Source: an uncultured Thermoanaerobaculia bacterium
GTDB lineage: Bacteria; Acidobacteriota; Thermoanaerobaculia; Thermoanaerobaculales; Sulfomarinibacteraceae
DNA length: 64,000 nt
NCBI GenBank assembly: GCA_964423595.1
Contig: CAYRFI010000001.1
Coordinates: forward strand, 21,598 to 85,597
Direction of reading: 5' to 3'
The notes beneath the pieces are model-generated. The model ran no database searches. It saw only the letters and a list, made by a program, of their open reading frames with translations, and was not told the DNA's origin. The stretch's first letter is position 1. Every line of letters begins with the position of its first letter. Of this stretch, positions 391-62,319 are shown one piece after another. The position numbers were made by a program, and so were the translations under genes.

Positions 391-485
391 AACCGCGAAG
401 ACGCGAAGAGCGCAAAGACCGTCACGAAGGAAAACTCGAGATATCACCTTTGCGCTTTCTTTGCGTCTTTGCGTCTTTGCGTTTT
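391..485 (+). repeat. Long imperfect hairpin built from about 8-nt periodic repeats (GACGCNAA / TTTGCGTC arms)
   Basis: Left arm AACCGCGAAGACGCGAAGAGCGCAAAGACC (391-420) pairs with right arm CCTTTGCGCTTTCTTTGCGTCTTTGCG (447-473). There is an 8-bp core GCGCAAAG/CTTTGCGC plus a roughly 15-bp extension whose only non-Watson-Crick positions are G-U when folded as + strand RNA. Confidence 0.7.
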
Positions 486-545
486 CAACGAGGTACCCTT
501 AGCGGTAGCTGCCTTGTCAACGCGACAACGAAAAACGCAACAAAT

Positions 546-567
546 GGGCGGAGCCTTGACTCCGCCC
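546..567 (-). terminator. Terminator-like hairpin 3' of the gene remnant
   Basis: GGGCGGAG-N6-CTCCGCCC, followed on the - strand by a T-rich run (ATTTGTTGCGTTTTT). It parallels the hairpin downstream of the intact paralog at 5985-6003. Confidence 0.45.
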
Positions 568-590
568 ATTCTCTCCGGAGGGGGAGGGAC

Positions 591-680
591 TCTACGTCTC
601 GGGATGAGCTCGAAGGGCTTGAACGCCGAAATGATCGGCTGCACGGCATTGACCCGCAGCTCGACGGGCCAGTCGGACAC
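591..680 (-). pseudogene. Remnant of the 3' end of a Spy/CpxP-like gene (paralog of 6028-6477)
   Basis: CGGGATGAGCTCGAAGGGCTTGAACGCCGAAATGATCGGCTGCACG (600-645) closely matches 6037-6082. It encodes ...VQPIISAFKPFELIPRR versus ...VQPIIPAFKLFELIPRR. The stop codon position is mutated (TCT instead of TCA on the + strand) and no N-terminal part is present. Confidence 0.45.
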
Positions 681-780
681 CCTCGGACAAGAGCACCGGT
701 GTCCCGCGGGGCGCCCTGAGCGCGCGTTCCGACAGCCCTGCTATAGTGGTGGGAGGAAACAGATCTCAAAAGCGGAATTC

Positions 781-2697
781 ATGGCACGCCTCAAGACGCT
801 CAGGCGCCTCCTGGTGGTGGGGAACTCGCCGAACATCGCGCAACGCGCGCGGGAGCTGCTCGTGAAGGACGGGTACCGTCCCGCCGACTTGGAGGTGGTC
901 ACGACGCTGCGGCACGCGCGCGAGGCGCTCGCTGCGGCGGAGTGGGACGCGGTCCTCCTCGAGCTCGACCTCCCCGACAGCCGCGGCCTTGACACGCTGC
1001 GCGCCATCCTTGTGGCGGACGACGCTCTCCCGGTGGTCGCCCTGACCGATCACGCCGACCGCGAGCTTGCGGTGGCGGCGCTCGCCGAAGGGACGCAGGA
1101 CTTCGTGGTGACGACCGACCTCAGTGCCTCTTCCATGGGGCGGATTCTCGAGGATGCGGTCGCCCGCAAGACGGCCGAGAAAAGGCTGAAGCGGAGCGAG
1201 GCCCGATACCGGCTGCTGACGGAGCACGCCCTCGATCTGATCTGGATGATGAGTCCCGACCTCGAATTCACCTACGTCAGCCCCGCGATCACTGCCCTGA
1301 GCGGTTATACGCCGGAGGAGGTCGTCGGCACGCGGCTCGCCCAGTATGTTGCACCCCACGATTTCGAGGCGCTGCTCGCAATTGTGGCCGAAGAGCTCGC
1401 ACGATACCCCGAAGATCGTGGGGTGATCGCCTCCACAACCCTCATCGCCAAGGATGGGGAGCAGGTCCCGGTCGAGGTTCACGCCAAGTTCGTCCGGGAC
1501 GAGGACGGCGCGCCCGTCGCGCTGCACGGAATTGCGCGCAACATCAGCGAGCGGAATCGCGCTGAAACGGAACGTCGGCTGCTGCAGACGCAGCTCGCCC
1601 ACGCCCAGAGGATGGAGTCGATCGGTCGGCTGGCGAGCGGGGTCGCCCACGACTTCAACAACCTGCTGCAGGCCCTCACCGGGACCATCCAGGCGTTGCG
1701 GCGGCGCGGCGCCGACGCCTCTGACTTCGAATCGGACCTCGCCCACCTCGATCTGCTGGTGGAGCGAGGCTCGCGGCTCACCCGTCAACTGCTCATGTTC
1801 TCGCGCCGTGACGCCGAGCGCCCGATCGCTTTGGACCTCAACCGGTTGTTGAGTCACAACGCGAACATGCTTCGCCGCCTGCTGCCGGAGACAATCGAGA
1901 TTCAACACGAGCTGTGTGACCAGCCACTGGGCATCATGATCGATCCGGGGCGCATCGAGCAGGTGGTCGTGAACCTGGCGGTCAACGCCGCGGACGCCAT
2001 GCCGGTCCACGGCCGTCTCACCTTCCGCACCGGTGCCGATCACGGCTCGGCCCTGCTCGAAGTGGAGGACACGGGGACCGGCATCCCGGACGACCTCCAC
2101 GACAAGGTGTTTGATCCGTTCTTCACCACCAAGGAAGCCGGTACAGGCACCGGGCTCGGGCTGTCGGTGGTGCGCGGCATCGTCACCGAGGCAGGCGGCA
2201 CGATCGACCTCGGCACCACGCCGGCCGGCGGCACCATGTTCACGGTCAGGCTGCCACTGCTCGACGCCAAGGGACAGCTCACCCCGGTCCCCGGAACCGG
2301 CGGCATCGTGCGCGGCAGAGGCGAGCGCGTGCTGGTGGTGGACGACGACGAGAACGTCCGTACGGGGATCGAGCAGATGCTGAAGCTGCTCGGCTACCAC
2401 GTCGTCGCCGCCGACGGCCGGCAGGGCGCCCTCGCCGCGGTGGCCGAGGGTTCCTTCGGCCTGCTGCTCACCGACATGGTGCTCGCCGACGGCAGCGGGA
2501 TCGAGATTGCCACCGAGCTCCAGTCACACCAGCCCGGCCTGCCAGTGGTTCTGATGTCCGGCTACAGCCCCGAGATCGCGGACAGCGGCTCCCTTCTGGA
2601 ACGCAGCTTTTTGCAAAAGCCTTTCACCCTCGAGCTCTTGGCGCAGGCGGTACGAGCGGCGCTGGATGAGGGAGCAGCCGGGGACGAGGGTTGTTGA
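781..2697 (+). CDS. Hybrid sensor histidine kinase (REC-PAS-HisKA-HATPase-REC)
   Basis: Start chosen at [14 protein letters not shown] (REC domain, ...[13 protein letters not shown]...). Also present: a PAS region, the H-box [16 protein letters not shown], the ATPase motifs DTGTGIP and GTGLGLS, and a C-terminal REC ([10 protein letters not shown]...[13 protein letters not shown]). The longer ORF from 469 runs through the repeat region. Confidence 0.85.
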
Positions 2698-2720
2698 ACT
2701 GTTCGTCTGGGGGGAGTCTT

Positions 2721-5708
2721 ATGTCCGACAAGGAAACCACTGGGCCATCACCGCGGTTCGCGCCGGCGGGCGCCGTGATCGGCGTCCTCATCGCGATGGT
2801 AGTGGTAATCGTCGGTGCCGGGTCGTGGTTCTACGTTTCCCAGCGGCATTCGATCCAGCTCAAGGTCGAAAACGACCTGACTGCCATCGCCGAGCTGAAG
2901 CTGGGCCAGATCCAGGAGTGGAGGGCCGAACGGCTCGACGACGCGGAGCTGCTGGGCACCGACCCGATGTTCGTTCGAGCGGCCGTGAGTTTTCTCAGTT
3001 CAGCCAACAGCGGCGACCGCGAGGCGCTCCTGGGCAGGTTCCGCGCGGTGGCCGCGGCGCGGAAATACGAGGAGATCGCGCTGTTTGCCGCCGACGATCC
3101 GACCACCAGCACCCGGGGTCTCGTCCTCCACCCAAGCCTTTCCCTCGCCGATAACCTGCACGAGCTCCACCCCGACGCGGTTACCGCCGTTGCCGTCGCC
3201 CTGGGCGAGGGGCGCCCGGCCTTCTCCGATCTGCACCGAGGACCGTCGGGGCTCCCGCCTCACCTCGATATCGTCGCGCCGCTCGTCGACCCCGGGGGGA
3301 GCGGAAAGCCGCTCGGTGCGGTCGTCCTTCGCAGCGATGCTGCCGATTACCTCTACCCTCTCATCCAATCCTGGCCGGTCTCGAGTCGTACCGCCGAAAC
3401 CCTGCTCGTGCGCCGCGACGGCGATCAGGTCCTCTTCTTGAACGATATCCGTCACCGGAAGAAAGCCGCGCTCGAGCTCCGCCTCCCCGCGGACCAATCC
3501 GACCTACCGGCGGCAATGGCGATCGGCGGCGCCGAGGGGTTCGTCCACGGGTGCGACTACCGCGGCATCGAGGTGCTTGCCGTCGCGCGGGTCGTTCCGG
3601 AGACGAGCTGGCACATGATTACGAAGGTCGACCGGGAGGAGGCCCTCGCTGACTGGGAGAGGCGCGCCCCCCTCATTCTCGCGCTGCTGGCCGGGTTGGT
3701 GATCACCGCCGTTTCGACGACTCTATTGCTCTGGCAGCGCAACGCCAAGTCCTACTTCAAGACCCTGTACGAGACCGAGGCGGCGCACCGCCTCACCGAG
3801 GCCCGATACACTGCCACCCTGCTGAGCCTCGGCGACGGCGTGATCGCCGCCGACCCCGAGGGCCGGGTCGAACTGATGAACCCGGTTGCCGAGGAGCTGA
3901 CCGGCTGGCCCCAGGCCGAGGCCCGGGGCCGGACGATCGACGAGGTCTTTCGGATCGTAAGGGAGACAGACAGGGCGCCGGCCGAAAGCCCGGTTGAGAA
4001 GATCCTCCGCGAGGGCCGCATCGGCGGGCTCGCGAACCACACCCTGCTGGTCGCGCGAGACGGCTCCGAACGCCCGATCGCCAACACCGGCGCACCGATT
4101 CGCGACCCAGAGAACCAGGTCTTCGGCGCGGTCATCGTGTTCCGCGATCTGACCGAGGAGCGCAACGCGATCGCCGAGCTGCGCGACGGCGAGCGGCGCT
4201 ACCGGCTGCTCGCCGACAACACCCTGGATGTGATCTGGCAGATGGACCTCGAGGCCCGCTTCACCTATGTCAATCCCGCGATTCAACAGCTGTTCGGTTA
4301 TGCGCCCGAGGAGTTCATCGGGACCTCGCTCGCCGACCACTGCGACCCAGAGCACCTCGAGGAGCTCCTGAAAGTCATCGCTCACCAGCTCGAAGCGCTT
4401 GGTGATCACGATGGTGTTGTCGTCGAGACCGTCATGCTCCATCGTGACGGCCACGAAATCCCCGTCGAGGTGCACGGCAAAGTCCTGACCGACGAGTCCG
4501 GCGCACCGGTCGCGTTACAGGGCACGACGCGCGACCTCGGCGAACGCAAGCGGTTCGAGGATCAACTGCTGAAGTCGCAGAAGCTCGAGGCCGTGGGCCG
4601 GCTGGCGGGCGGGGTCGCCCACGACTTCAACAACATGCTTCAGGCCATCGTCGGCCACACCGAGATCGCCATTGAAAAGGGCGGCGGCGATGCCAGCCTC
4701 CTCGCCACCCTGCAGGAGATCCTTGAGGCCGCCCGTCGTTCCGCGGACCTCACCCGCCGGCTCCTCGGGTTCGCCCGCCGCCAGCCCACCCAGCCCGCGG
4801 TGCTCGACCTCAATGACGCCGTCGCTCGTATGCTGACGATGCTGCGTCCGATCATCGGCGAGGACATCGACTTGCTGTGGAAGCCGGGCGACGGGCTGTG
4901 GCCGGTGTTCCTCGACCCGTCACAGCTGGACCAGATACTGACAAATCTGGCGGCCAACGCCCGCGACGCCATCGCCGGTGTCGGCAAGGTCGTCATCGAA
5001 TCGGCCAACGCCAGCTTCGAAGCCGAATACTGCGCCGGTCATGCCGATGTGAAACCCGGTGAGTACGTGATGCTGGCGGTGAGCGACAACGGCTGCGGCA
5101 TGGACCGCGAGACCCTCGATCACGTCTTCGAACCTTTCTACACCACCAAGGAAAAGGGGGCGGGGACCGGTCTCGGGCTCGCCACGGTGTACGGCATCGT
5201 GCGTCAGAACGCAGGCTTCGTCAACGTCTACAGTGAGCCCGACGGAGGCACCACGTTCAAGATCTACCTCCCCAGGTGCCGGAAGGATCAGACCGAGGCG
5301 CCGTTTTCCGGCCGAACCCAGGCGTCCTACCCGCGCGGTGACGAGACTGTGCTGGTCGTCGAGGACGAACCGTCGATCCTGAGCATGTGCCAGCAGATGT
5401 TTGAACGGCTCGGCTACTCGGTGCTCACCGCGGGGACCCCCGGCGACGCGTTACGCACCGTGGAGGAGTACCGGGGCCCCATCCACCTCCTCCTCACCGA
5501 CGTCGTGATGCCGGAGATGACCGGCCTCGAGCTCGCGCACACCTTGCAGGAATCCAACACCGCCCTGAAGTGCCTTTACATGTCGGGTTACACCGGTAGT
5601 GCCGTCGCGCAACGGGATATCCTGGACCAGGGCCTGAAATTCATCCAGAAGCCGTTCAGCCTCAACGACCTCGCCGACAGAGTCCGCGAGGTGCTCGACG
5701 AATCCTAG
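2721..5708 (+). CDS. Hybrid sensor histidine kinase with periplasmic Cache-like domain, PAS repeats and C-terminal REC
   Basis: ATG 2721 is preceded by GGGGAG. Two TM helices flank a roughly 280-aa extracytoplasmic region (..DYRGIEVLAVARVVPETSWHMITKVD..). Two or three PAS domains, the H-box [29 protein letters not shown], and a REC (VLVVEDEPSI..LLLTDVVMPEMTG). Stop TAG at 5706-5708. Confidence 0.85.
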   Translation: MSDKETTGPSPRFAPAGAVIGVLIAMVVVIVGAGSWFYVSQRHSIQLKVENDLTAIAELKLGQIQEWRAERLDDAELLGTDPMFVRAAVSFLSSANSGDREALLGRFRAVAAARKYEEIALFAADDPTTSTRGLVLHPSLSLADNLHELHPDAVTAVAVALGEGRPAFSDLHRGPSGLPPHLDIVAPLVDPGGSGKPLGAVVLRSDAADYLYPLIQSWPVSSRTAETLLVRRDGDQVLFLNDIRHRKKAALELRLPADQSDLPAAMAIGGAEGFVHGCDYRGIEVLAVARVVPETSWHMITKVDREEALADWERRAPLILALLAGLVITAVSTTLLLWQRNAKSYFKTLYETEAAHRLTEARYTATLLSLGDGVIAADPEGRVELMNPVAEELTGWPQAEARGRTIDEVFRIVRETDRAPAESPVEKILREGRIGGLANHTLLVARDGSERPIANTGAPIRDPENQVFGAVIVFRDLTEERNAIAELRDGERRYRLLADNTLDVIWQMDLEARFTYVNPAIQQLFGYAPEEFIGTSLADHCDPEHLEELLKVIAHQLEALGDHDGVVVETVMLHRDGHEIPVEVHGKVLTDESGAPVALQGTTRDLGERKRFEDQLLKSQKLEAVGRLAGGVAHDFNNMLQAIVGHTEIAIEKGGGDASLLATLQEILEAARRSADLTRRLLGFARRQPTQPAVLDLNDAVARMLTMLRPIIGEDIDLLWKPGDGLWPVFLDPSQLDQILTNLAANARDAIAGVGKVVIESANASFEAEYCAGHADVKPGEYVMLAVSDNGCGMDRETLDHVFEPFYTTKEKGAGTGLGLATVYGIVRQNAGFVNVYSEPDGGTTFKIYLPRCRKDQTEAPFSGRTQASYPRGDETVLVVEDEPSILSMCQQMFERLGYSVLTAGTPGDALRTVEEYRGPIHLLLTDVVMPEMTGLELAHTLQESNTALKCLYMSGYTGSAVAQRDILDQGLKFIQKPFSLNDLADRVREVLDES

Positions 5709-5888
5709 CCCGCATTATTCATGAAGTCTCTACTGCGGGCGACGATGCACAACACCCCGCGGTGTTTTCTCGCCTCGGGGTGCTCCACGTACCGTCAAGT
5801 ACGCGTCCGCGCCCCTCAGGTCGCAAACCCCACGGGGAATGGCACCTCGCCGCCCTCGCGACGAGACCTCATGAATAATGCGGGCTAG
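5705..5888. mobile_element. MITE copy A (176-bp element 5709-5884 plus 4-bp CTAG direct repeats)
   Basis: Perfect terminal inverted repeats CCCGCATTATTCATGA...TCATGAATAATGCGGG. Flanked by CTAG (5705-5708) and CTAG (5885-5888). No coding capacity. By my base-by-base comparison it is identical to the reverse complement of 58451-58626. Confidence 0.85.
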
Positions 5889-5970
5889 GCTGATTCGAAC
5901 CGTGGTGGTTTCAGCCGCCAACCGTGATGACACGGGGCCGCGATCAGCCAGAACTGCGCCTGCTGCATGG

Positions 5971-6003
5971 ACACACAATAAACAGCGGGGCTTGAGGCCC
6001 CGC
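5971..6003 (-). terminator. Rho-independent-type terminator of the Spy-like gene
   Basis: GCGGGGC-TTGAG-GCCCCGC (5985-6003), followed on the - strand by TGTTTATTGTGTGT. It lies 25 nt past the stop at 6028. Confidence 0.6.
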
Positions 6004-6027
6004 CGTCGGCCACCGGAGGGGGAACGT

Positions 6028-6477
6028 TCAGCGCCGCGGGATGAGCTCGAAGAGCTTGAAGGCCGGGATGATCGGCTGTACGTCGTCGGCGCGGGCGACA
6101 AAATGGAGCTTTCGCGCCTGTGCCTCGTCGAGCAACGCCACAAAGTCCTCGTGGTAGATGAGGTGGACCTCGACGAGCTGCTCCGTGAGGTCACGGCGCT
6201 CGATGAATAGCGCACCCACTTCGGCCGGGTCCGGCTCTTCCACCTCGAACAGCGCGTCGATCTCCTCCTGGACAGCAGCAATCGCCTCCTTGAGAGGTTG
6301 CTCCGCGTCGCGGTGGATCTGATAGATCACATCCCACGCAGCGGCCTGTTCGGGGGTCAGACTGAGGAAGGCGACCACGGCGTTGTGGGACGCCTCGACG
6401 ATCGGCGGCGGCTCCTCCTGGGCGAATACCGGTGTCACCAATACAAGTGCAATCAGCGCAGCCAAGATCTTCTTCAT
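6028..6477 (-). CDS. Periplasmic Spy/CpxP-family (LTxxQ) protein
   Basis: Start at MKKILAALIALVLVTPVFAQE (signal peptide), preceded by GGAGAGA. LTxxQ-like motifs LSLTPEQAAAW and LDEAQARKL; helical acidic protein of 149 aa. Confidence 0.6.
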   Translation of the reverse strand: MKKILAALIALVLVTPVFAQEEPPPIVEASHNAVVAFLSLTPEQAAAWDVIYQIHRDAEQPLKEAIAAVQEEIDALFEVEEPDPAEVGALFIERRDLTEQLVEVHLIYHEDFVALLDEAQARKLHFVARADDVQPIIPAFKLFELIPRR

Positions 6478-6560
6478 CTGTCTCTCCTTTCCTTCAAATT
6501 CAGCTTTGTTTGAGTGATCACTCCGCGTCATGGCGTTCTGACGGAGGAATCCGCAGCAGG

Positions 6561-6641: not shown

Positions 6642-7316
6642 TTGGGGCCGCGTCAAACCACAACCCGGGAACGCCTGATCACCACCGCCGCCGAGCTCTT
6701 TCGGCGCCAGGGTTATGCCCACACCGGGGTCAATCAGATCATTCAGGAGGCAAACGCGACCAGCGGCAGCTTTTACCACTTCTTTCCGGCCAAGGAGGAT
6801 CTGCTGCTGGCGGTGGTCGATCACATCGCCGAAGTCTTCGAAACCGGGATCTTCGATCCCGCCGCGGATCGATCCGATGACCCCATCGAGGAGATCTTCA
6901 TGATCCTCGATCTCTACCGTCGGCAGCTCGACGACGGTGGCTTCACCTTCGGTTCACCGATGGCAAGCCTGTCGGCCGAGGTTTCGGAAAATCACCCTGA
7001 GGTCAGGGCCAGGCTGGCCGAGATCTTGAGCTCATGGACCGGCCGCATCGAGGAGTTGCTGCGGAATGCGGGGGAGCGCCTGCCGAGGAGCATCGATCGC
7101 AGCGCCCTCGCCCAGCTCATCGTCTGCACGATGGAGGGCGCAGTCCTCGGCACCCGTTTGCGGCGCAGCCTGGCGCCCTTCGATGCGTCCGTGGGTCAGC
7201 TCCGAACCTACCTCGATCTTCTCGACAGCCGGAAGGAGCACCACGCGACTGTCCCGGCCGCGAGAAGGGTGCCTTCGGTCTCGCGGCCACAGCCTGCGGA
7301 TTGGAGAAGCTGGTGA
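6642..7316 (+). CDS. TetR/AcrR-family transcriptional regulator
   Basis: N-terminal HTH TRERLITTAAELFRRQGYAHTGVNQIIQEANATSGSFYHFFPAKEDLL. TTG start. Stop TGA at 7314-7316 overlaps the GTG of the next gene (GTGA). Confidence 0.85.
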   Translation: MGPRQTTTRERLITTAAELFRRQGYAHTGVNQIIQEANATSGSFYHFFPAKEDLLLAVVDHIAEVFETGIFDPAADRSDDPIEEIFMILDLYRRQLDDGGFTFGSPMASLSAEVSENHPEVRARLAEILSSWTGRIEELLRNAGERLPRSIDRSALAQLIVCTMEGAVLGTRLRRSLAPFDASVGQLRTYLDLLDSRKEHHATVPAARRVPSVSRPQPADWRSW

Positions 7317-7900
7317 ACAGCATTGACAACCATGCCGGCAACCCAGCTATCACGGAGGAAGAGATCCGACAGTTGGTGAGCGTGGTGGTCGACGAGGCGA
7401 TGGCCGTCAAAAGGACAGACGCGCCGAAAAACCCCGAGACCATCGCCATCGGCGCTGACCACGCCGGATACGAGCTCAAGCAGGCGATCACCGAACACCT
7501 GCGTCAGCAGGGCCTCGCCGTTCACGATTGCGGGTGTGTCAACACCGAGGCGGTCGATTACCCTGACTTCGCGCATGCGGTCGCAAACCTGGTTGGCACC
7601 GGCGTCTGCCGGTGGGGCATCATCGTTGACGGCGCCGGTATCGGCTCGTGTATCGTCGCCAACAAGGTGCCCGGGGTGCGCGCCGCCCTCTGCTACGACC
7701 TCTCGTCGGCCCGTAACAGCCGTGAGCACAACCACGCCAACGTCCTCACCCTCGGTGCCGGATTGATCGGTATGGGCCTCGCGCGTCAGATCGTCGACGA
7801 GTGGCTGGCCACGCCGTGGGGCCCGGACCGTCACGCGCGCCGGGTGGCCAAGATCACCGACATCGAGCACCGCTACCTGCGGCCGGGAGCCGAAGCATGA
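7313..7900 (+). CDS. rpiB: RpiB/LacA/LacB-family sugar-phosphate isomerase with N-terminal extension (putative encapsulation peptide)
   Basis: Core IAIGADHAGYELKQAITEHL...GIIVDGAGIGSCIVANKVPGVRAAL...REHNHANVLTLGA. About 45 extra N-terminal residues include the amphipathic EEEIRQLVSVVVDEAMAV. The GTG 7313 start is inferred from the GTGA overlap; an internal ATG start (at MAVKRTD) would lack the extension. Confidence 0.8.
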   Translation: MNSIDNHAGNPAITEEEIRQLVSVVVDEAMAVKRTDAPKNPETIAIGADHAGYELKQAITEHLRQQGLAVHDCGCVNTEAVDYPDFAHAVANLVGTGVCRWGIIVDGAGIGSCIVANKVPGVRAALCYDLSSARNSREHNHANVLTLGAGLIGMGLARQIVDEWLATPWGPDRHARRVAKITDIEHRYLRPGAEA

Positions 7901-8727
7901 TCGATCGCAACGAGCTCATCGAGGCCGTCACCCGCCAGGTGCTGGCGACTCTCGCCGGCCAACCCGCCGACCAGGGTCTGGAAAACGCACCCCAGGTGGT
8001 GGCCAACGGCGCCGCCCGCCTCGGCTACTGCGGCGCCGCCGCCGCCGTGCCGAAGGACCTGGCGCAGTACATCGACCACACCCTGCTGCGGCCCGACGCC
8101 TCCTCTGCCGATATCGATCGTCTCTGCGACGAGGCGGCGGAGTACGGGTTTGCCGCGGTCTGCATCAACCCCTCATGGGTGGCGCGAGCCAAGAAGCGCT
8201 TGCGCGGTTCCAACATCACGGTGGCCTCGGTGGTTGGCTTCCCTCTCGGCGCCAACACCCCCGAGATCAAGGCGATGGAGGCGCGCCGAGCGCTGCGGGA
8301 CGGCGCGCGTGAGATCGACATGGTGATCAACATCGGCGCCCTCAAAGGCGGCGAGCATGACCTCGTGCGGCGTGACATCGCCGGCGTGTCGGACGCCTGC
8401 CGCGAGGTCGGGGCGCTCAATAAGGTGATCATCGAGGCCGCGTATTTGACCGACGAGGAGAAGGTGATCGCGTGCCGGCTCGCGGTCGCCGGGCGCGCCC
8501 ACTACGTCAAGACCTCGACCGGCTTCGGGCCGGGCGGGGCAACTGTATTTGACGTTGCTCTGATGCGCGAGGTCGTCGGCGCCAAGGTTGGCGTCAAAGC
8601 GGCCGGCGGCATCCACACCGCGGCCGAGGTGCGCGAGATGATCACCGCCGGGGCGACGCGCATCGGGGCGTCGGCCGGCGTCCGCATCGTCTCGGGTGAG
8701 GAAGGAGAGTCCGGTGGACAATATTGA
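7897..8727 (+). CDS. deoC: Deoxyribose-phosphate aldolase with N-terminal extension (putative encapsulation peptide)
   Basis: Core ..[38 protein letters not shown]...VKTSTGF...VKAAGGI. About 50 extra N-terminal residues start [25 protein letters not shown] overlap with the rpiB stop. Confidence 0.85.
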
Positions 8728-9340
8728 CCTTCGCTCTTACGTTTTCCTGGATTCGCTGCAGCCCCAGTACGCGGCGTTCCTCGGCACCGTCGCACAGGGC
8801 TTCCTGCCGCTGGCCGGCGACGCTTCGCTGTGGGTGGAGATCTCGCCGGGGATCGAGATCAACCGGCTCACCGACGTCGCCCTCAAGGCGACCCACGTGC
8901 GGCCCGGGATGCAGATCGTCGAACGCTTCTATGGCCTGCTCGAGGTGCACTCCGAGTCACAGGCCGACACCCGCGCAGCCGGCGCCGCCATCCTGGCGGA
9001 GATCGGGCTCGAGGAGAAGGACCGCCGCAAACCGAAAATCCTCTCGAGCCAGGTCATCCGCCACCTCGACGACCACCAGGTGCAGCTCATCAACCGCATG
9101 CGGCACGGCCACATGATCATCCCCAAGCAGACCCTGTACGTGCTCGAGGTCGAACCGGCGGCCTACGCGGCGCTCGCGGCCAATGAGGCCGAGAACGCCG
9201 CCGAGATCAACATTCTCGAGGTGCGGGCCTTCGGCTCGATGGGCCGGGTCTACCTCGGTGGAGAGGAGCGGGATATCGATGTCGGGTGGCGCGCGGCGGT
9301 CGCCGCCATCGAGGGCGTGGAAGGAAGAGAAGAAAAGTGA
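8714..9340 (+). CDS. Tandem-domain BMC shell protein (BMC-T type)
   Basis: Two BMC-like halves: ..[31 protein letters not shown].. and ..[39 protein letters not shown]... GTG 8714 is preceded by GAAGGAGAG. The alternative GTG 8696 overlaps deoC more. Confidence 0.65.
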
Positions 9341-9343
9341 TCA

Positions 9344-9378
9344 CGATTTCGGATTTCGGATTTCGGATTTCGGATTTG
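9344..9378 (+). repeat. Heptanucleotide tandem repeat (GGATTTC, about 4.7 copies) in the leader of the BMC-H gene
   Basis: CGATTTC GGATTTC GGATTTC GGATTTC GGATTTG, directly after the stop at 9338-9340. Including the SD (GAAAGGAG), the 9341-9406 spacer has six GGA motifs. Confidence 0.9.
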
Positions 9379-9406
9379 GTTCTCGGATGCGAGAAAGGAG
9401 TTTTCG

Positions 9407-9724
9407 ATGGCTGAAGCGTTGGGAATGATCGAGTGCCGGGGATTTGCGGCTGTCGTGGAGGCCGCCGACGCCATGGTCAAGGCGGCCAAGGTCGAGCTGG
9501 TGTCGTATGAGAAGACTGGCGGCGGCTACGTCACCGCTATCGTGCGCGGCGACGTCGCCGCGGTCAAGGCCGCGGTCGAGGCCGGTATCCGCGGCGCCGA
9601 GACCATCGGCGAAGTGGTGTCGACCCATGTCATTGCCCGCCCCCACACCAACATCGACCTCGTCCTGCCCCTCGGCCGCGCCGAAGAGGCGGCCGGCGAA
9701 ACCAAGGCCAAGGGCAAGCGCTGA
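9407..9724 (+). CDS. BMC-H hexameric shell protein (PduA/EutM-like)
   Basis: [60 protein letters not shown] is the canonical single BMC domain. SD GAAAGGAG lies upstream. Confidence 0.92.
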
Positions 9725-10038
9725 TGCTGCTCGGGCGAGTGGCCGGCACCCTGGTCGCGAGCCGCAAGGACGAGGGCCTCCAGGGCCAGAAGTTCCTGGT
9801 TGTGCGCGAGCTCGGGGTAGACGGCAAGGAGACCGGTGGTCACGTGGTGGCGGCGGACTCGGTCGGCGCGGGTGTCGGCGACGTGGTGCTGTGGGCCTCT
9901 GGTTCGTCGGCGCGGCAGACCGAGTACACCCGCGACCGCCCGTGTGACGCGGTCATCATGGCCATCGTCGATAGCTGGGAGGTCGGCGGCGAGGAGATCT
10001 ACCGCAAGACCCCGGCCGGCGGCGAGTGGGCGAGCTGA
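9724..10038 (+). CDS. BMC-P pentameric vertex protein (EutN/CcmL family), paralog 1
   Basis: [30 protein letters not shown]...[25 protein letters not shown] overlaps the preceding TGA. Confidence 0.88.
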
Positions 10039-10053
10039 CGATCGAAACGGGCG

Positions 10054-10086
10054 CGGTCGAGGACGAGGAGCGATGAACCTCGACCG
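10054..10086 (+). promoter_or_regulatory. Intra-operon stem-loop with a 5-codon mini-ORF, upstream of the aldehyde dehydrogenase
   Basis: Perfect 9-bp stem CGGTCGAGG / CCTCGACCG with a 15-nt loop ACGAGGAGCGATGAA. ATGAACCTCGACCGGTGA (10073-10090) encodes MNLDR. A second SD, TGGAGG, lies 8 nt before TTG 10106. Confidence 0.5.
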
Positions 10087-10105
10087 GTGACTGGAGGCGC
10101 AGCAG

Positions 10106-11548: not shown

Positions 11549-12138
11549 TGCAGCCGGCTATTGCATTGCTCGAGTTCAACTCTATCGCCATCGGGATGCG
11601 GGCCGGCGACGCCATGGTCAAACGCGCCCCTGTCGAGGTCACCTATGCCGGCACCGTTCATCCGGGTAAATACCTGGTGCTGGTCGGCGGTGACGTCGCG
11701 TCGGTCGAGGAGAGTTACGTCGCCGGCCTCTCCGCCGGCGGCGACGCCGTGGTCGATCGGATCTTCCTGCCGTCCGCCCACCCGGATATCGCACGTTACC
11801 TGCGCGGAATGCGCGGTCGGGTCACCGGCGAAGCGATCGGGATCGTCGAGACCACAACCGTCGCCGCAACCATCGGCGCCGCCGACCGCGGCCTCAAGGG
11901 CGCCGACGTGGATCTGGTCGAACTCAAGCTCGCCGACCGGCTCGGCGGCAAGGCCTATTGCGTCTTTTCGGGCACCGTCGCCGACGTCGAGGCGGCGGTC
12001 GAGGTCGGCGTCGATCACCTTGACGACCCATCCATGTTGGTCGCCCAGGTCGTGATCCCCGACTTCCACGACGAGATGCTGGCCAACCTCGAGGCGGCGA
12101 CCGAGTTCTCCTCGCGCATCAGCGGCGGCAGGGGTTAG
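11548..12138 (+). CDS. Tandem-domain BMC shell protein (BMC-T, Haliangium T1-like)
   Basis: Domain 1 AIALLEFNSIAIGMRAGDAMVKRAPVEV..GKYLVLVGGDVASVEES; domain 2 IGIVETTTVAATIGAADRGLKGADVDLVELKLADRLGGKAYCVFSGTVADVEAAVE. ATG overlaps the preceding TGA. Confidence 0.85.
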   Translation: MQPAIALLEFNSIAIGMRAGDAMVKRAPVEVTYAGTVHPGKYLVLVGGDVASVEESYVAGLSAGGDAVVDRIFLPSAHPDIARYLRGMRGRVTGEAIGIVETTTVAATIGAADRGLKGADVDLVELKLADRLGGKAYCVFSGTVADVEAAVEVGVDHLDDPSMLVAQVVIPDFHDEMLANLEAATEFSSRISGGRG

Positions 12139-13248: not shown

Positions 13249-13331
13249 GGCGTCGGCGCTCCAGGAATCACCGGGTTACTGTACCGCGCCCCGGATGCCG
13301 GTCGTGTGACGGCTCAGCCCGGAGGGCAAAA

Positions 13332-13367: not shown

Positions 13368-13406
13368 TATAACACCAGTCGAGAACGCGATACGGGGGAT
13401 CACACC

Positions 13407-14864: not shown

Positions 14865-14874
14865 GCCGGGGGGT

Positions 14875-26822: not shown

Positions 26823-27016
26823 ACAGGGACCCCATCATCGCTCCGCCAAGGCTCCTCGAACGCCAGGCGTGACGCGGTCACGGCATTGCGACCGCGCGGC
26901 GGTTGTGGCAGACTGCATCCACACGAGCCCACTGCGACCGACCGGAACGGATCCGCCGGGTTGAAGAGACGACGGAGGGTCCGGGCGTCCGGTCGGCACC
27001 GCGACAAAGAGGAGGA

Positions 27017-28447
27017 ATGATGAAAAGAGGCATGTCGTACATCGTACTGATCTTCGCCATGGTGATGCTGACCCAAGCCTGCGCATCGTCACGATCGAAG
27101 TTGAGCTTCGAGCCAGGCGCAATCGACACCGATACATATGTTCGTAAGGTCGATCAGTTCGTCGTGATTGCGGACGGCTCGCTTTCGATGACCGATCGTT
27201 GGCAAGGTCAACGAAAGCTCGGGGTTTCCGAGGACTTCTTGATCAGCCTCAACCAGACGGTACCCGATCTCGGCTACGACGGAGGGCTGCGAACCTTCGG
27301 GCGTGGGCTCTGCAAGAGCGAGGGGAAAACGGTTTCGATCATCGAAGTCGGTGAGTACCTCACCTCGTCGTTCGGTGATGGCGTTGCGAGGTTCAACTGC
27401 GCCAACGGCACCAGTCCCCTCAACCTCGCCCTCGACGCCGCCGGGGCTGATCTTTATAAAAGGGACTCGAGGACGGCAATCGTCATCGTCAGCGACGGTC
27501 TCGACATGGGCAAAAAGGAAGTGGCCGCCGCCGAGGGCCTCGCATCCGCGTTTGGCGAAAACCTCGAGATCTACGCGGTCCAGATCGGCGACAGCAACAA
27601 AGGACGTGAGCTTCTCGAAAAGGTGGTTGCCGCAGGTGGTTCCGGCTATCTCAAGCCCGCGAGCAAGCTGACGACTTCCCGGGCGATGGCTCAATTCGTC
27701 GCCGACGTCTTCCTGTGGCCCGATTCCGACGGCGACGGTGTTGCTGACCACATCGATCAATGTCCGGACACCCCAAAGGGCGTTGAGGTTGACGCGGTGG
27801 GTTGCCCGATCGATTCCGACGGTGATGGTGTCCCCGATTACCTCGACAAGTGCCCCGGCACCCCCAAGGGCGTCGAAGTTGACGCCAAGGGCTGCCCGAT
27901 CGACTCCGACGCCGACGGTGTGCCCGACTACCTCGACAAGTGCCCCGGCACCCCCGGCGGCACCAAGGTCGACACCAAGGGCTGCCCGGTCGATTCCGAC
28001 GGCGACGGCGTTCCCGACTCTCTCGACAAATGTCCCGGCACGCCCAGGGGCGTCCCGGTCGATGACACCGGTTGCCCGATCGCGGGTATCGAGGTGGCTG
28101 GCGACGAGTGGTCCGTGAGAGGCCAAGTGCTCTTCGACCTCAACCGTGCCACCATCAAGCCCGAGGCGGCAGAGGTCCTGCTCCGGGTCGCCAACTTCCT
28201 CAAGAAGAACCAGCAGTACACGGTCGAGATCCAGGGCAACACGGACAGCACCGGAGCTCTGGCCTGGAACATGAAGCTCTCCGAGATGCGGGCCGACGCG
28301 GTGAAGCAATTCCTCGTGACCGACGGCGTCACGGCCGATCGTTTGACCACCAAGGGCTTTGGACCCAACGAACCCCTCGCGCCCAACAACACCGCCGAGG
28401 GCCGGGCCAGGAACCGCCGGGTTGACTTCAAACCCACGATGCGCTGA
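27017..28447 (+). CDS. Outer-membrane lipoprotein: vWA-like domain, four thrombospondin type-3 repeats and an OmpA C-terminal domain
   Basis: AGGAGG SD. MMKRGMSYIVLIFAMVMLTQAC lipobox. MIDAS-like DGSLSM. Repeats DSDGDGV(A/P)D..D(Q/K)CP(D/G)TP(K/R)GV.VD..GCP x4. OmpA motif ..NTDSTGALAWNMKLSEMRADAV...GRARNRRVDF. Confidence 0.85.
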   Translation: MMKRGMSYIVLIFAMVMLTQACASSRSKLSFEPGAIDTDTYVRKVDQFVVIADGSLSMTDRWQGQRKLGVSEDFLISLNQTVPDLGYDGGLRTFGRGLCKSEGKTVSIIEVGEYLTSSFGDGVARFNCANGTSPLNLALDAAGADLYKRDSRTAIVIVSDGLDMGKKEVAAAEGLASAFGENLEIYAVQIGDSNKGRELLEKVVAAGGSGYLKPASKLTTSRAMAQFVADVFLWPDSDGDGVADHIDQCPDTPKGVEVDAVGCPIDSDGDGVPDYLDKCPGTPKGVEVDAKGCPIDSDADGVPDYLDKCPGTPGGTKVDTKGCPVDSDGDGVPDSLDKCPGTPRGVPVDDTGCPIAGIEVAGDEWSVRGQVLFDLNRATIKPEAAEVLLRVANFLKKNQQYTVEIQGNTDSTGALAWNMKLSEMRADAVKQFLVTDGVTADRLTTKGFGPNEPLAPNNTAEGRARNRRVDFKPTMR

Positions 28448-28533: not shown

Positions 28534-29349
28534 ATGGTTTCCACCCGAACCCTGATGGCGCTCGCCACAATGTTAGCGATCGCCTTTCCAGCCTTCGGTC
28601 AGGACGGCGGGACCTCAACCTTTCATCCATTTGCCTTCGGCTTCACCGGCGGTGATTCCGGTGTGCCGGACACCAAGGTCTACGATGTCCGAATTCCAGC
28701 CAGCTTCAAGATTTTCGCGGCCGACGATGACGACTGGGGCTTGCGGATTCGGCTCGTCGTCTACGTAGGAGTCTATGACTTCACCGTCGAAGACGCAATC
28801 GATTTCAACTACAGATTCCAGTCCCTTGCCGCGACTCCAGGAGTCGAGTTCCTCGTCCCGGTGGGTGGGGGCTGGATCCTCAAGCCCTTTGCCGAGATCG
28901 GCTACGGCCGCGATTTCGACGACGATCTCGATTTCAGTGTGTGGTCGATCGGCATGCGAAGCATCGCCACCTGGGCGGTCAAGAAATCGGACCTCAGCTT
29001 CGGCACCGAGCTGAAGTACCTGTCGACCTTCACTGCGACCGACGCCGTGGATAGTGACTTCGGAGAGATCCGGCTCGGTTTCGACGCGCGCCAACCGCTG
29101 CCGTTCACTGTTGGAGGGAACCAGGCCGACCTCAGTGGCTATTACATACGTCGCCAGTACGTCGACGCTCTTATCGCCCGTGAGGATCGCGAAGCTCTCG
29201 AAATCCAGTACACTAATGAAATCGGCTTCACCTTTGGCACCACACCAAAGGTCAAGCTCTGGTTCGTCCCGCTGCCGCGGATCGGAATCGGTTACCGCTT
29301 CGGCCCGAACATCAAGGGCGTGCGCCTCAATTTCGGATTCCCGTTCTAG
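28534..29349 (+). CDS. Outer-membrane beta-barrel protein (hypothetical)
   Basis: Signal peptide MVSTRTLMALATMLAIAFPAFG|QD. Amphipathic beta-strand pattern. C-terminal beta-signal ..VRLNFGFPF. AT-rich promoter-like region upstream. Confidence 0.7.
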   Translation: MVSTRTLMALATMLAIAFPAFGQDGGTSTFHPFAFGFTGGDSGVPDTKVYDVRIPASFKIFAADDDDWGLRIRLVVYVGVYDFTVEDAIDFNYRFQSLAATPGVEFLVPVGGGWILKPFAEIGYGRDFDDDLDFSVWSIGMRSIATWAVKKSDLSFGTELKYLSTFTATDAVDSDFGEIRLGFDARQPLPFTVGGNQADLSGYYIRRQYVDALIAREDREALEIQYTNEIGFTFGTTPKVKLWFVPLPRIGIGYRFGPNIKGVRLNFGFPF

Positions 29350-57486: not shown

Positions 57487-58419
57487 TCATTTCTCAAGCG
57501 CTTCTTCGAGGATCTTCTGATAGCTCTTGAAACGGTGCTCGGCGATCTCGCCCACTTGAACTCCTGCGAGGACCGCGCAATCCGGTTCGTGGTCGTGGGT
57601 GCAATCGGGAAAGCGGCAGTCGCGGCTCCGGCTCGCAATCTCCGGAAAGGCCGCATCGAGCTCCTCTCGTGTGGCCTCCCACACTCCGAACTCTTTGAGA
57701 CCCGGAGTGTCAACCACGAATCCCCCGTATGGCAACGGCATGAGCTCGGCAACCGAGGTGGTGTGCTTCCCCTTGCCAGTGCCTTCCGAAAGCTCACCCA
57801 CCTTGAGTCGAAACCCGGGATAGACCGCGTTGAGAAGCGACGACTTGCCGGCGCCGGAGGGACCACAGAAGAGAGTAGTGCGATCCACCAGCATCCGCTT
57901 GACAACCCCCAGGCCCCAGCCGGTGCGCGCTGATACCAGGAGCACGCGATTGTCGAGGTGAGAATAGGCCGGCAGCCATTGTTGGACCTCCTCGAGCCCC
58001 TGGTCGGTCTTGTTGATCGTAATGACCGCTTTGATTCCCGCCAAACGACATGCGACCAGGAAGCGATCCAGGAGACCCGGTTTGGGCGCCGGTTCGCGGG
58101 CAGCGAAGACAAGCAGGGCCTGGTCGACATTCGCCACCAGTATCTGGGCGCGGTTCTTCGACGGTGCCTTGCGAAGAAGGCAATTGCGGCGAGCGTTGAC
58201 GGCGGTAATGACTCCGTTCTCGGCCCGCATCTCCACGGCCACCGAATCACCGACGACCAGGCGAGCTGCTGTCGGCGTTCCGCCCTCCCAGTTGAGGCGT
58301 CGCCGAGACGCAACCACGAGGGTCTCGTCTCCGACTTGCACTCGGACCAACGGGCCGTGCATTGCGATGACTGTGCCGTCGAGAATTCTCATGTCGGCGG
58401 AGAGTATAGCTAACATCAA
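57487..58419 (-). CDS. rsgA: Ribosome small-subunit-dependent GTPase RsgA (YjeQ)
   Basis: Circularly permuted GTPase: ..ITINKTDQ.., GPSGAGKSSLLNAV, ..DTPGLKEF... Zinc knuckle CRFPDCTHDHEPDCAV. Confidence 0.9.
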   Translation of the reverse strand: MMLAILSADMRILDGTVIAMHGPLVRVQVGDETLVVASRRRLNWEGGTPTAARLVVGDSVAVEMRAENGVITAVNARRNCLLRKAPSKNRAQILVANVDQALLVFAAREPAPKPGLLDRFLVACRLAGIKAVITINKTDQGLEEVQQWLPAYSHLDNRVLLVSARTGWGLGVVKRMLVDRTTLFCGPSGAGKSSLLNAVYPGFRLKVGELSEGTGKGKHTTSVAELMPLPYGGFVVDTPGLKEFGVWEATREELDAAFPEIASRSRDCRFPDCTHDHEPDCAVLAGVQVGEIAEHRFKSYQKILEEALEK

Positions 58420-58797: not shown

Positions 58798-61700
58798 CTA
58801 CTCCGTAACGCGCTCCAGCCGTGGGGGGCGGGTGGTCAGCTCGTCGATTGCCTGACAGAAGCGCGCGAAGGCTCGGTAGTTCTCCGGCGCGACCGTCTGT
58901 GCGGGCAGCTCGACGCGCAGCACCGACCGCTGGGTACCATCGACCGGCTCGAGCGTCTCGCTGACCGATCCCCACTCGGCATCGAGTCGTCGCGGATGCC
59001 TCTTTATCGGCGCCCATCCAGGCGGTGGCACGAGGTCAAGCTGGATTCTGCGCTCGATCGGCACCCGTATCATCACGGGATAGATGCGCTCCGGCAGGCG
59101 CGCCAGCATCGGCACCACCGGGTTGGCGAGAATCAGGCTTCGACACACGAGCTCGCCGTCCTCCGCGTCACACGCACCGGGAACGGTGATATCGAGATGG
59201 ATGGTCGCGCCATCCTCGGTCTTCTCGATTTCGCCATCGACCGTATCGGCTCCAGAAAACATGGAAAGTGCCATCTGCCGGTAGACCATACCGACCTGAT
59301 CCTCCGGAACGCTCTCCACCCTTTCGAGAAGCCTGGCGGCCTGACCGCCCCGAAGCGGCATGGTGAAGGCTATGTGCGCGCCACCATCGGCGTCGACGGT
59401 CGCGCGCACGGCAAACTCGTCGACCAGATCCGGGTTGGAAAAGGTCGGCAATTTTTCGATGCGCACCACCGGCTGACGGGGATTGGAAAGCGGCAACACC
59501 AGTCCGTCACTTCCCTGGAAAAGGACATGGATCGAGCCGACCCCGCGGCGTTCCTCGCGGCTGTCAAACCAGATCTCGTCACCGCCATGGGTTACGCGCA
59601 GCAGAGCCACCGGAAAGGCGTCGAGCGTCGGCACCTGGAGACGTTGATCTCGGTCGGTCCAGGGTCGGGTCAGGACAAGGTCGACATCCCACCCCGCCTC
59701 CACGAGCACGGCGGCGACGATACCGAGGCGGTTGCCGCGGCGGCGGCTGAAGCTTTCTCCGGCTGTTTCTGCCACCGAAATCTCAGCGTCCCCCCTGTCA
59801 ACGGTTTCCACCAGCGCATCGACCAGAGATTCGAGCTGCTCCTCGGGCGTCTCGCCGACCAGTACCTCCCGCTCCCACGCCCGGAGCTCCGGCGACGATC
59901 TCAGGATCGGCAACACCCGGTCGCGCACGGCGTCACCCACGTCCTGCCAGCTGACCCCGAATCCGTAGTTGAGCCATGGCATCAGGTCCTGGGCGGGTGG
60001 AGCGAAGGGTTCGGTCGGCATCGGCGGCACGTCCTCCGCCCGCCAATACAGCATCCGCAGGCCCTGCCACTCCTTCTCGCTGCGTTCCAGCCCCTCGAAG
60101 TTGCCGTCCACTTGAATATCCACCTCGGGCGGCACCAGCAGGATGTACTCGGAAAGACCGAAGGCGCGGTCGGGATCGGCAAAACGGTAGATGTAGGGCG
60201 GCAGGTGACCGTCACGCGATGCGCCCGTGGGACCGACCCAGGCCACATACTCTTCCTCGACCACGTCACCGGGTTCGACATCCGAGAGGGTGATACTGCC
60301 CTGACCCGGCTGGAGATCGCTCGGCACCACGAATTCGCCATCCGGTTTGAGGACTCTGATCTTGAAAACGTGGGCGTCCGGCAATGGCTGCAGCATCGAC
60401 GCTCGCCGCGCACCCACCGGCGTGTTAGCTCGGGTCAGCCCGTGATAGTAGTAGATGCTCGACCCGTCAGCGAATATCCGTTCCACCGCCTGGTCGAGAA
60501 GCAGCACAGCATCGACGTCTGCTCCGAGATCGCGATACTTACCGATGAAGTCGTGACCGTCGACGGCAAAGGGCGTGAAGAAAGGCTCGCTCCCGTTGCG
60601 CCACGACAACGTCAGGAGACGAAGATTCGATGGGTTCCGCTCGAGGGCGCCAGCGAGCGCAACATCCAGCGCCCCGCGGTCTTCGCCAGCCAACAGCAAT
60701 CCGAGCTCGTCGAAGATCCTGAGATCTCCCCATCGATTCCGTGCCTGCTCGAGCTCAGTGCGAGCAGCCTCGACATTTCCGTTCTCGAGGAGGAGGGTCA
60801 CCAACTGGACGTCGAGATCCGGGTCCAGAACTTCCGGTGCCAGACTTGCGGTCGCGGCCGCTGCTTCACCGACAAGACAGCTCGATGCCATCTGACCAAT
60901 CCACCGAGTCTCGATCGGGGTCGCAACGGCCAACGCGCGCAGCAGGGATCCCCGTTCACGCCACCGTTCGAGAGAGGCCAGGACCTCGAGCTGAAGATCG
61001 GTAACGGCAAGAGAACCCGGGAGGTCCGCTTCCAGCTGAGTGAGACCCTCCTCGGCTTCGCGCACCCAGCCCCTCCTGACCGTCTCACGGACCCAGGCTC
61101 GCAGTACGCGTGAATCGTTGGGGTAGTCGGTTACCAGTTGATCGATGATGTTTTCAGCGTCCTCGCTGCGTCCCTCACGTATCGCTATCGACCGCTCCAA
61201 GAGGCGCGAACCTGGAATGCCGCTCGCCTCCCTGAGGAGCTGACTGATGTTGCGAGCGCGATCAACTCCAGGCACCCCATTATCAGTCGCTATGAAATGG
61301 CGGGCCAGGGCAAGTGCCACCCACGGATTATCGGGATCGACCACACGGGCGCGATCAATCCACCGGTACTCGTCTTCCGGATCGCTGCGACCGCGCGCCA
61401 ACTGCGCGGCGAGAAGATACTCGGGCACCGGAGCATCCCCGTCCTGGAGGCGCCGCGAGAGCTCGGCGGAGGCAGGCGGCAGCGCGGCAGTGATTTCGGA
61501 GGCCGCCCAATTTTCATCAGCTCGATCGACCCTGGTCAGGCTCCTGGTTGGGTGCCCCTGGTCGTCGAGCACGCTGACGCGAACTTTCGGACCATCGGGC
61601 GACGCAACCTCCAGCCGCAGCCGGTGCACACCCCGAGCGAGGCGCAGGCGGTACCACGCGACTCCTGGATCTACCTGGCCGCAATATCGACGCTGATCGA

Positions 61701-62319
61701 CCGGGTGCCCGTCGACCTCGAGGTTGTAGCCCCCCCGCGCCTCGACCACCATCCAGCCGGTCGTCTCGGCAGCCACCTGCAAGGTCCACGAAACAAGAAA
61801 GACACCGTCAGCCATCATGGCCCGGGGCGGCCCGTGCCACGCGTCGGCGGTCCGCATCAGCAAACGGAACGGACCTGCCGGATCGGACCACATGGTACCG
61901 AGAGGCGGCAGATCCGAATCCAGCGGCACCACGTCGCGTTCCAGATCGAGGGTGCTGAAAACACCGAAAGCGCCTGCCATTTCGGCGGTTGCCAGCGCAC
62001 CGGCAGGAGGACGAGCCCCGAGGCTGGCCGCCACCTGCTCGAGAACAAACCCGAGTTCCGGATCGCGACCGTTGTCGGCGGCCGCCAACACCTCTTCCGG
62101 TTCCGGGAGGTCTTCGATATTGGCGAGCCACCAGGAGGCGGCCGCCAAAGCATCGGCACTGCCCGGGTCTGCGGCGATGGTCTGTAAGGCGAGTTCACGC
62201 GCGCTGTCGAGATCAAACTCCATCCCCGCCTGCCATACCTCCCACCACCCGGCGTTGACCGTGAGCGATGAAGCACAACAGACGACGATCAGGAGTGCGC
62301 GGCGCCACACAGTGATCAT
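58798..62319 (-). CDS. 1173-aa exported protein with TPR-like N-terminal half and DUF3857/DUF3858-like region
   Basis: Signal MITVWRRALLIVVCCASSLTVNA. Helical repeat region. ..SSIYYYHGLTRANTPVG...HVFKIRVLKPDGEFVVPSDL...EPGDVVEEEYVAWV.. resembles DUF3857. ATGA overlap with the upstream gene. Confidence 0.55.
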   Translation of the reverse strand: MITVWRRALLIVVCCASSLTVNAGWWEVWQAGMEFDLDSARELALQTIAADPGSADALAAASWWLANIEDLPEPEEVLAAADNGRDPELGFVLEQVAASLGARPPAGALATAEMAGAFGVFSTLDLERDVVPLDSDLPPLGTMWSDPAGPFRLLMRTADAWHGPPRAMMADGVFLVSWTLQVAAETTGWMVVEARGGYNLEVDGHPVDQRRYCGQVDPGVAWYRLRLARGVHRLRLEVASPDGPKVRVSVLDDQGHPTRSLTRVDRADENWAASEITAALPPASAELSRRLQDGDAPVPEYLLAAQLARGRSDPEDEYRWIDRARVVDPDNPWVALALARHFIATDNGVPGVDRARNISQLLREASGIPGSRLLERSIAIREGRSEDAENIIDQLVTDYPNDSRVLRAWVRETVRRGWVREAEEGLTQLEADLPGSLAVTDLQLEVLASLERWRERGSLLRALAVATPIETRWIGQMASSCLVGEAAAATASLAPEVLDPDLDVQLVTLLLENGNVEAARTELEQARNRWGDLRIFDELGLLLAGEDRGALDVALAGALERNPSNLRLLTLSWRNGSEPFFTPFAVDGHDFIGKYRDLGADVDAVLLLDQAVERIFADGSSIYYYHGLTRANTPVGARRASMLQPLPDAHVFKIRVLKPDGEFVVPSDLQPGQGSITLSDVEPGDVVEEEYVAWVGPTGASRDGHLPPYIYRFADPDRAFGLSEYILLVPPEVDIQVDGNFEGLERSEKEWQGLRMLYWRAEDVPPMPTEPFAPPAQDLMPWLNYGFGVSWQDVGDAVRDRVLPILRSSPELRAWEREVLVGETPEEQLESLVDALVETVDRGDAEISVAETAGESFSRRRGNRLGIVAAVLVEAGWDVDLVLTRPWTDRDQRLQVPTLDAFPVALLRVTHGGDEIWFDSREERRGVGSIHVLFQGSDGLVLPLSNPRQPVVRIEKLPTFSNPDLVDEFAVRATVDADGGAHIAFTMPLRGGQAARLLERVESVPEDQVGMVYRQMALSMFSGADTVDGEIEKTEDGATIHLDITVPGACDAEDGELVCRSLILANPVVPMLARLPERIYPVMIRVPIERRIQLDLVPPPGWAPIKRHPRRLDAEWGSVSETLEPVDGTQRSVLRVELPAQTVAPENYRAFARFCQAIDELTTRPPRLERVTE

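Follow-up and report, generated by a model that had tools for sequence, protein, structure and literature searches.

Insertion sequences of the IS1380 type are better known for mobilising resistance genes, ISEcp1 being the example, and a 4-bp duplication of a YTAR target is the textbook signature of the IS5 subgroup. Among the described IS1380 elements, IS1247 is listed with a length of 1672 bp, inverted repeats of 16/13 and a direct repeat of 5 (PMC3281130), and outward promoters are known for ISEcp1 and ISPme1 (PMC9330008). The IS1380 family also serves as the prokaryotic outgroup of piggyBac (PMC10813416, PMC10140906). Here we describe two copies of a 176-bp miniature inverted-repeat transposable element (MITE) in a stretch of 64,000 nucleotides from an uncultured Thermoanaerobaculia bacterium (contig CAYRFI010000001.1), in the following called the window. 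It is highly probable that both are copies of one MITE mobilised by an IS1380-type transposase encoded elsewhere. The pair belongs to an ordinary, widespread environmental MITE family.

The element pair and its insertion sites

Copy A (5709-5884, plus strand) is located behind the gene of a hybrid histidine kinase, and copy B (58451-58626, minus strand) upstream of rsgA. A base-by-base comparison shows that they are exact reverse complements of each other (176/176 bases). A chance origin of such a match is impossible, and in a repeat search the pair ranks as the longest inverted repeat of the window (186 nt with flanks, 99%). The terminal inverted repeats (5709-5724 and 5869-5884 in copy A, 58451-58466 and 58611-58626 in copy B) have the sequence CCCGCATTATTCATGA and are perfect in both copies (16/16); when extended, they match at 21/22 positions. 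Copy A is flanked by CTAG at 5705-5708 and 5885-5888, copy B by TTAG, read on the plus strand, at 58447-58450 and 58627-58630. The exact reverse complementarity, the 16-bp repeats and the flanks had been claimed in a preliminary description of this DNA, and the direct comparison confirms them.

The entire element folds into a single long imperfect hairpin with energies of -101.6 and -121.4 kcal/mol for the two strands (z = -10 and -11 versus shuffles), a feature not contained in the preliminary description. Copy A has a GC content of 63% and is without a meaningful open reading frame (ORF), the sole ORF that overlaps it (5730..6281, minus strand) having no Pfam match. Rfam at gathering thresholds gave no match at either copy, and promoter and terminator scans predicted neither an outward promoter nor an intrinsic terminator within the 176 bp. 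A noncoding sequence well-defined by inverted repeats, a size below about 600 bp and a duplication that differs between the copies (CTAG at A, TTAG at B) are all found here, which supports the earlier classification as non-autonomous MITEs with a 4-bp YTAR duplication.

Independent metagenome contigs recovered through exact-protein look-ups contain both sites. L143, L144 and L146, JGI contigs from three different samples, run from the kinase gene through the MITE into the following LTXXQ gene, thus covering both flanks of site A, and are 99.9% identical to the window. Site B is entered by L156 from rsgA and by L160 from the DUF3857 gene. A relative with a 96% identical RsgA (L168, L169) keeps the DUF3857-rsgA synteny without the element. 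When the MITE and 4 bp are removed from the window (180 bp in total), the remaining sequence aligns with that of the relative without gaps, and 233 of 268 positions (87%) are identical; the empty orthologous site reads CTGC where the window has CTAA on the gene strand. The MITE at site B is also missing from further relatives (L162-L167). No orthologous empty site was found for site A, where the neighbouring genes are different in relatives whose LTXXQ proteins are about 80% identical. The pair consists of genuine inserted MITEs and is not an assembly artefact.

The transposase family associated with the ends

Six elements of 1.4-1.7 kb share the ends of the MITE, and five of them (L121, L085, L031, L049, L084) carry single ORFs of 440-473 amino acids. 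Two of the encoded transposases were scanned against profile models. Both match PF13701 (E-values 4e-139 and 3e-122; 464 and 408 bits, cutoff 34.7) and NF033539, the NCBIfam equivalog of IS1380 (372 and 359 bits, cutoff 180). Otherwise, the NCBIfam scan of these two proteins gave just sub-threshold matches to IS4 and IS701 and none to an IS5 model. The five transposases are 34-40% identical to each other; acidic residues and a Y-x2-R-x3-E-x3-K block are invariant in all five. YTAR duplications accompany the same ends on all five full-length elements with a transposase. A search for an insertion sequence with matching inverted repeats had been proposed as a check of the preliminary description, and the full-length elements that it yielded are of the IS1380 family.

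Annotated IS1380 elements on plasmids look alike. In Pseudomonas putida KF715, an element of 1655 bp on pKF715A starts with CCCGCATTTCTCACAG between two CTAG flanks; its terminus behind CTAG is also given as CCCGCATT. The element on pEP1 of Acidovorax temperans (1627 bp) has CCCGGATATTTCAC between CTAG flanks and starts with CCCGGAT directly after CTAG. A second IS1380 element of pKF715A has the end CCCGGCTTATTCATGA, which is identical to the MITE end at 14/16 positions, and TTAA flanks. What characterises an IS1380 parent is thus present, namely PF13701 and NF033539 scores above cutoff, repeats of about 15 bp starting with CC and a duplication of 4-5 bp. Since IS1380 elements have the same ends and the same YTAR flanks, the YTAR duplication observed here is a property of an IS1380 clade. 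A DNA search with one full-length element against plasmids gave no match, and the transposases associated with the MITE end are less than 40% identical to any plasmid-borne IS1380 transposase. Judged by its terminal sequence, the window MITE is placed in a superfamily whose defining feature is the ends.

The two elements of pKF715A are different members of the IS1380 family and lie seven bases apart (308.3-311.7 kb; L171/L172), both with CCCG ends and YTAR flanks. Their neighbours are an IS30 transposase gene and a plasmid recA.

Occurrence of the end sequence

Species-representative genomes were scanned once with a 20-nt end pattern. This yielded 16 loci, about ten of which are elements of 158-174 bp in one metagenome-assembled genome (MAG) of the Planctomycetota; the others are distributed over Nitrospiraceae, Acidobacteria, Sulfomarinibacteraceae and further MAGs. 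A metagenome scan for YTAR followed by the end sequence gave at least 120 contigs, and one IMG/VR contig also bears a copy of the end sequence. Complete elements were defined by pairing ends within 2 kb, and the following counts refer to the 91 complete elements among the matches listed. The majority (85) are MITE-sized with 73-640 bp and a median of 190 bp, while six have 1.4-1.7 kb. Mostly, the end sequence is found on hairpin MITEs of 120-290 bp, in MAGs of several phyla.

Identical 4-bp flanks are present in 43/91 elements (CTAG 18, CTAA 10, TTAG 9, TTAA 6). YTAR occurs on both sides in 67/91, and in 43 of these 67 the two flanks are identical, compared with 29% expected if they were independent (p = 4e-9). 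The census of target-site duplications that had been suggested earlier, run on the genome and metagenome matches listed, thus shows the YTAR pattern. Duplications of 2 bp (TA, as in IS630) or 3 bp (TAR) were also considered; they are excluded by copies in opposite orientation with TTAG on both sides and by covarying outer bases.

For the interior of the MITE, no close relative was found in about 1 Mb of fetched loci except for the same two sites in sister populations. The closest match to its subterminal sequence outside its own population is a hairpin remnant of about 58 bp in a Sulfomarinibacteraceae MAG (L007:7390-7450); over its first 27 nt (CCCGCATTATTCATGAGGTCTCGTCGC), this remnant matches one end of the window MITE without a difference.

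Several points weigh against mobilisation by an IS1380-type transposase from outside the window. Only the terminal 17 bp or so of the window MITE are shared with the full-length elements, so that no particular insertion sequence can be named as the parent from which it arose by deletion; L130 loosely shares about 40 bp but has no intact ORF. A search among the window ORFs revealed no transposase in the 64 kb, and a resident autonomous partner in the source genome is something that we infer only. With no transposase nearby, mobilisation must occur in trans, as had been claimed before. The metagenome scan demanded YTAR on one side, which introduces an ascertainment bias. Finally, the flanks are non-identical in 48/91 of the complete elements among the matches listed, mostly differing by one transition; this is consistent with decay, but also with shuffling of flanks by recombination.

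Target choice and proposed mechanism

In the mechanism that we propose, the MITE would be a noncoding, hairpin-forming passenger whose 16-bp ends, recognised by a DDE transposase, are all that it has kept. An IS1380-family transposase, presumably encoded elsewhere in the genome, would bind these ends, cut a YTAR tetranucleotide with a stagger of 4 nt and insert the element there. Repair would then duplicate the tetranucleotide, resulting in CTAG at A and TTAG at B. Tolerated insertions would be concentrated on stop codons and in spacers, because YTAR holds TAG or TAA on each strand and is rare inside the genes of a genome with 64% GC. At site A the duplication would regenerate the stop codon of the kinase, and at site B the element would come to lie just upstream of rsgA.

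YTAR is strongly depleted in the window, whose 64 kb contain 42 such sites, including the four duplications of the two MITEs. CTAG occurs at 0.28 of its Markov-2 expectation in the window, and TTAG, CTAA and TTAA at 0.5-0.6. Among the matches listed, 13 of the 43 elements with intact duplications (about 30%) have a duplication that coincides with the stop codon of an open frame spanning 100 codons or more. Control YTAR sites on the same contigs coincide with such stops in 15.6% (odds ratio 2.3, p = 0.018). Given target choice and purifying selection, landing on the kinase stop is a recurrent and expected event. The position at the kinase stop is not a special adaptation.

Age of the copies

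Sequence identity of the two copies had been taken as a sign of very recent or ongoing mobilisation. This claim is unproven. All recovered strains with about 99.9% identity carry the element at both sites. In L143, L144 and L146, copy A deviates from the window sequence at element positions 82 and 99 (5790 and 5807 in the window). Two of the nine single-nucleotide polymorphisms found in 12 kb are thus located inside the 176-bp MITE (odds ratio 19, p = 0.007), a density about 19 times that of the flanks, which points to gene conversion between copies or to a mixture of strains. One sample contains at least three haplotypes of the MITE, a hint at extra copies or strain variation. That A and B are 100% identical could be due to recent copying, to gene conversion or to consensus assembly.

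On the basis of this occupancy, polymorphism and haplotype diversity, it is a serious possibility, though somewhat short of probable, that the copies are old and owe their identity to gene conversion or to consensus polishing of a multi-copy repeat rather than to recent transposition. However, a gene-conversion signal is inseparable from strain mixtures in metagenome assemblies. Moreover, old copies are compatible with the explanation as MITEs and would weaken the claim of recency only.

Possible recombination between the copies

It had further been proposed that the two copies allow inversion of the intervening segment. A perfect inverted identity of 176 bp is a sufficient substrate for RecA, and one contig end has a matching arrangement. 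L156:1-190 (JGI 3300031359, Ga0307426_1011162) consists of AATCCTAG from the kinase flank of site A, the MITE and then CTAAGCGAGA from the rsgA flank of site B, which is exactly the junction predicted for an inversion of A by B. A family member in the Planctomycetota MAG JACQFD01 (L013:2171-2352, 174-178 bp) has the flanks TTAG and CTAA, inverted rather than direct, as expected after recombination between two inverted copies. However, the junction in L156 is backed by 8 nt only, and its reciprocal counterpart did not appear. A parental contig with kinase, MITE and LTXXQ gene comes from the same sample, as do several MITE haplotypes, which an assembler could mis-thread. An assembler chimera or strain mixing explains the junction equally well, and inversion is consequently unproven. 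GC skew has no break across the copies and gives no signal for or against it. We regard it as unlikely that the two inverted copies work as an active switch which flips, by recombination, the 52.6 kb from the bacterial microcompartment (BMC) locus to rsgA.

Improbable alternatives: IS5 affiliation and assembly artefacts

The preliminary description had assigned the pair to the IS5 group, since its YTAR duplication would mark mobilisation by a transposase of the IS5 subgroup. The 4-bp YTAR duplications are real, and to this extent the signature is present. However, this attribution fails on the transposases: all full-length elements found with these ends carry transposases of the IS1380 family and none of the IS5 type, and neither of the two scanned proteins matches IS5. 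IS5-group ends start with GG or GA, whereas the MITE starts with CCCG, directly behind CTAG as in the annotated IS1380 elements. An IS5-group MITE is thus very improbable.

That the copies result from misjoined contig ends or from a repeat collapsed or duplicated in the assembly, an objection already raised in the preliminary description, is scarcely credible: short-read contigs do break inside the element (L001 at the hairpin apex, Logan contigs 26-30 nt into the ends), as expected of a multi-copy palindromic repeat, and L156 has a hybrid end, but three contigs from separate samples span site A, site B is reached from either side, each copy has its own matching duplication and the empty site B of the relative is precise and gapless.

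Genes around the two copies

Copy A occupies a convergent spacer of 319 bp between the gene of a hybrid PAS histidine kinase with a receiver domain (2691..5708, plus strand) and that of an LTXXQ/Metal_resist (Spy/CpxP-like) periplasmic protein (6028..6531, minus strand). The TAG stop of the kinase (5706-5708) lies inside the left CTAG duplication, as had been claimed; the duplication keeps the stop, the coding sequence is intact and the protein unaltered. A terminator-like hairpin with a T-run (5981..6007, minus strand) is native to the LTXXQ gene and located outside the MITE.

Copy B is inserted between rsgA, encoding the ribosome small-subunit GTPase (57487..58416, minus strand), and the upstream gene of a DUF3857/TPR protein (58798..62319, minus strand), which adjoins rsgA in relatives without the MITE as well. 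It lies 30 bp upstream of the start for a protein of 309 amino acids (58416) and 54 bp upstream of the start for 301 amino acids (58392), the latter being used in most homologues. The promoter scan found one weak sigma-70-like site between copy B and rsgA, in native sequence. No gene is disrupted by either copy and the consequence for the locus is modest. A function for the host is neither required nor shown.

The kinase gene next to copy A overlaps with a second gene of the same type. Both encode hybrid PAS histidine kinases with receivers (469..2697 and 2691..5708, together 469-5708) and share a stretch of 77 nt with 82% identity around the HisKA box. On the other side, the LTXXQ gene is followed by the BMC locus (6642-15000), which comprises TetR, RpiB, DeoC, CsoS1D-like and BMC shell proteins, EutN and two aldehyde dehydrogenases. 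The order of this locus next to the LTXXQ gene is kept in relatives with about 80% identity (window; L143, L149, L153), and the far side of the LTXXQ gene varies among relatives between a kinase, an ABC transporter and Lon.

Other elements in the window

A second, unrelated MITE-like element of 423 bp is located at 29346-29776. It begins with CCCGTCTCCGTCTCCGTGCCCGACGG and ends with CCGTCGGGAACGGGAACGGAAACGGG, has imperfect inverted ends of about 26 bp that also start with CCCG, and is enclosed by a CTAG duplication whose left copy contains the TAG stop of ORF 28534..29349. Its end motif has seven matches in the window (0.24 expected) and none in 161 other loci. Solo copies of this motif are found at 35848-35877 (plus strand) and 38612-38641 (minus strand); the ORFs between them (35.8-38.6 kb) encode NhaA and a solute-binding protein, and no transposase. 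The sole Rfam match reported is an Acido-Lenti-1 small RNA (RF01687) at 42593-42639 on the plus strand (47.4 bits, gathering score 37); it supports an acidobacterial origin of the DNA, as do the names that homologues bear (Acidobacteriota, Thermoanaerobaculales). At least three tandem 90-bp repeats with 73-79% identity are located at 27721-28080 inside ORF 26903..28447.

Significance

The family assignment of the pair is corrected here: since YTAR is also the target of an IS1380 clade, a 4-bp duplication of this motif does not by itself identify an element as IS5. The results also document abundant miniature derivatives of IS1380-type elements in uncultured environmental phyla. Such MITE repeats break short-read assemblies at predictable points and tend to occupy stop codons. 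A literature search with the end sequence string and with IS1380 plus CTAG found no paper describing IS1380-derived MITEs, the breadth of their superfamily or its piggyBac-like target.

A wider interpretation is possible but rather doubtful. The end CCCG-N-TTATTCATGA, kept across transposases with 26-40% identity, could define a piggyBac-like, YTAR-targeting IS1380 clade. From this clade, hairpin MITEs with a preference for stop codons would have spread in very large numbers across phyla of uncultured bacteria from sediment and soil (Acidobacteriota, Planctomycetota, Nitrospirota and others). As part of this interpretation, the inverted pair described here might also flip the 52.6-kb microcompartment segment.

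Comparison with known systems

With members of the IS1380 family (IS1247, ISEcp1, ISPme1 and the elements of pKF715A and pEP1), the window elements share repeats of about 16 bp starting with CC(CG) and a 4-bp duplication, the range of the family being 4-5 bp. Full-length IS1380-type partners have about 1.65 kb and a single PF13701/NF033539 transposase of 440-470 amino acids. In contrast, the window elements are noncoding hairpins of 176 bp without a transposase, and their interior is unrelated to the full-length elements recovered. Furthermore, unlike in ISEcp1 and ISPme1, no outward promoter is predicted.

The IS5-subgroup elements and their MITEs have the 4-bp YTAR duplication in common with the window elements, and likewise comprise small members with terminal inverted repeats and mobilisation in trans. 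They differ from the window elements in the end sequence and in the family of the associated transposase. The likeness to IS5 is convergence in target choice, not membership. Correia, RUP, ERIC and Nezha elements resemble the window MITE in their size of 100-300 bp, terminal inverted repeats, target duplication and foldback over the whole length, as well as in their many copies at intergenic positions or gene ends. The parent family and the target motif of the window MITE are different.

The piggyBac end is CCCTAGAAAG (CCCTAG...), and the ends of both piggyBac and the window MITE begin with CCC...GGG. Both generate a 4-bp duplication with a central TA, which is TTAA in piggyBac and YTAR here (TTAA in 6/43). 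The window elements differ in their bacterial host and relaxed YTAR target. The piggyBac superfamily is defined by TTAA specificity, a DDD transposase with a C-terminal cysteine-rich domain and a eukaryotic host, whereas the elements described here are YTAR-targeting, bacterial and of the IS1380 type. The window element is a relative of piggyBac in mechanism class only. With its central-TA target of 4 bp and CCC/GGG ends, this resemblance provides a bacterial handle on the evolution of target choice.

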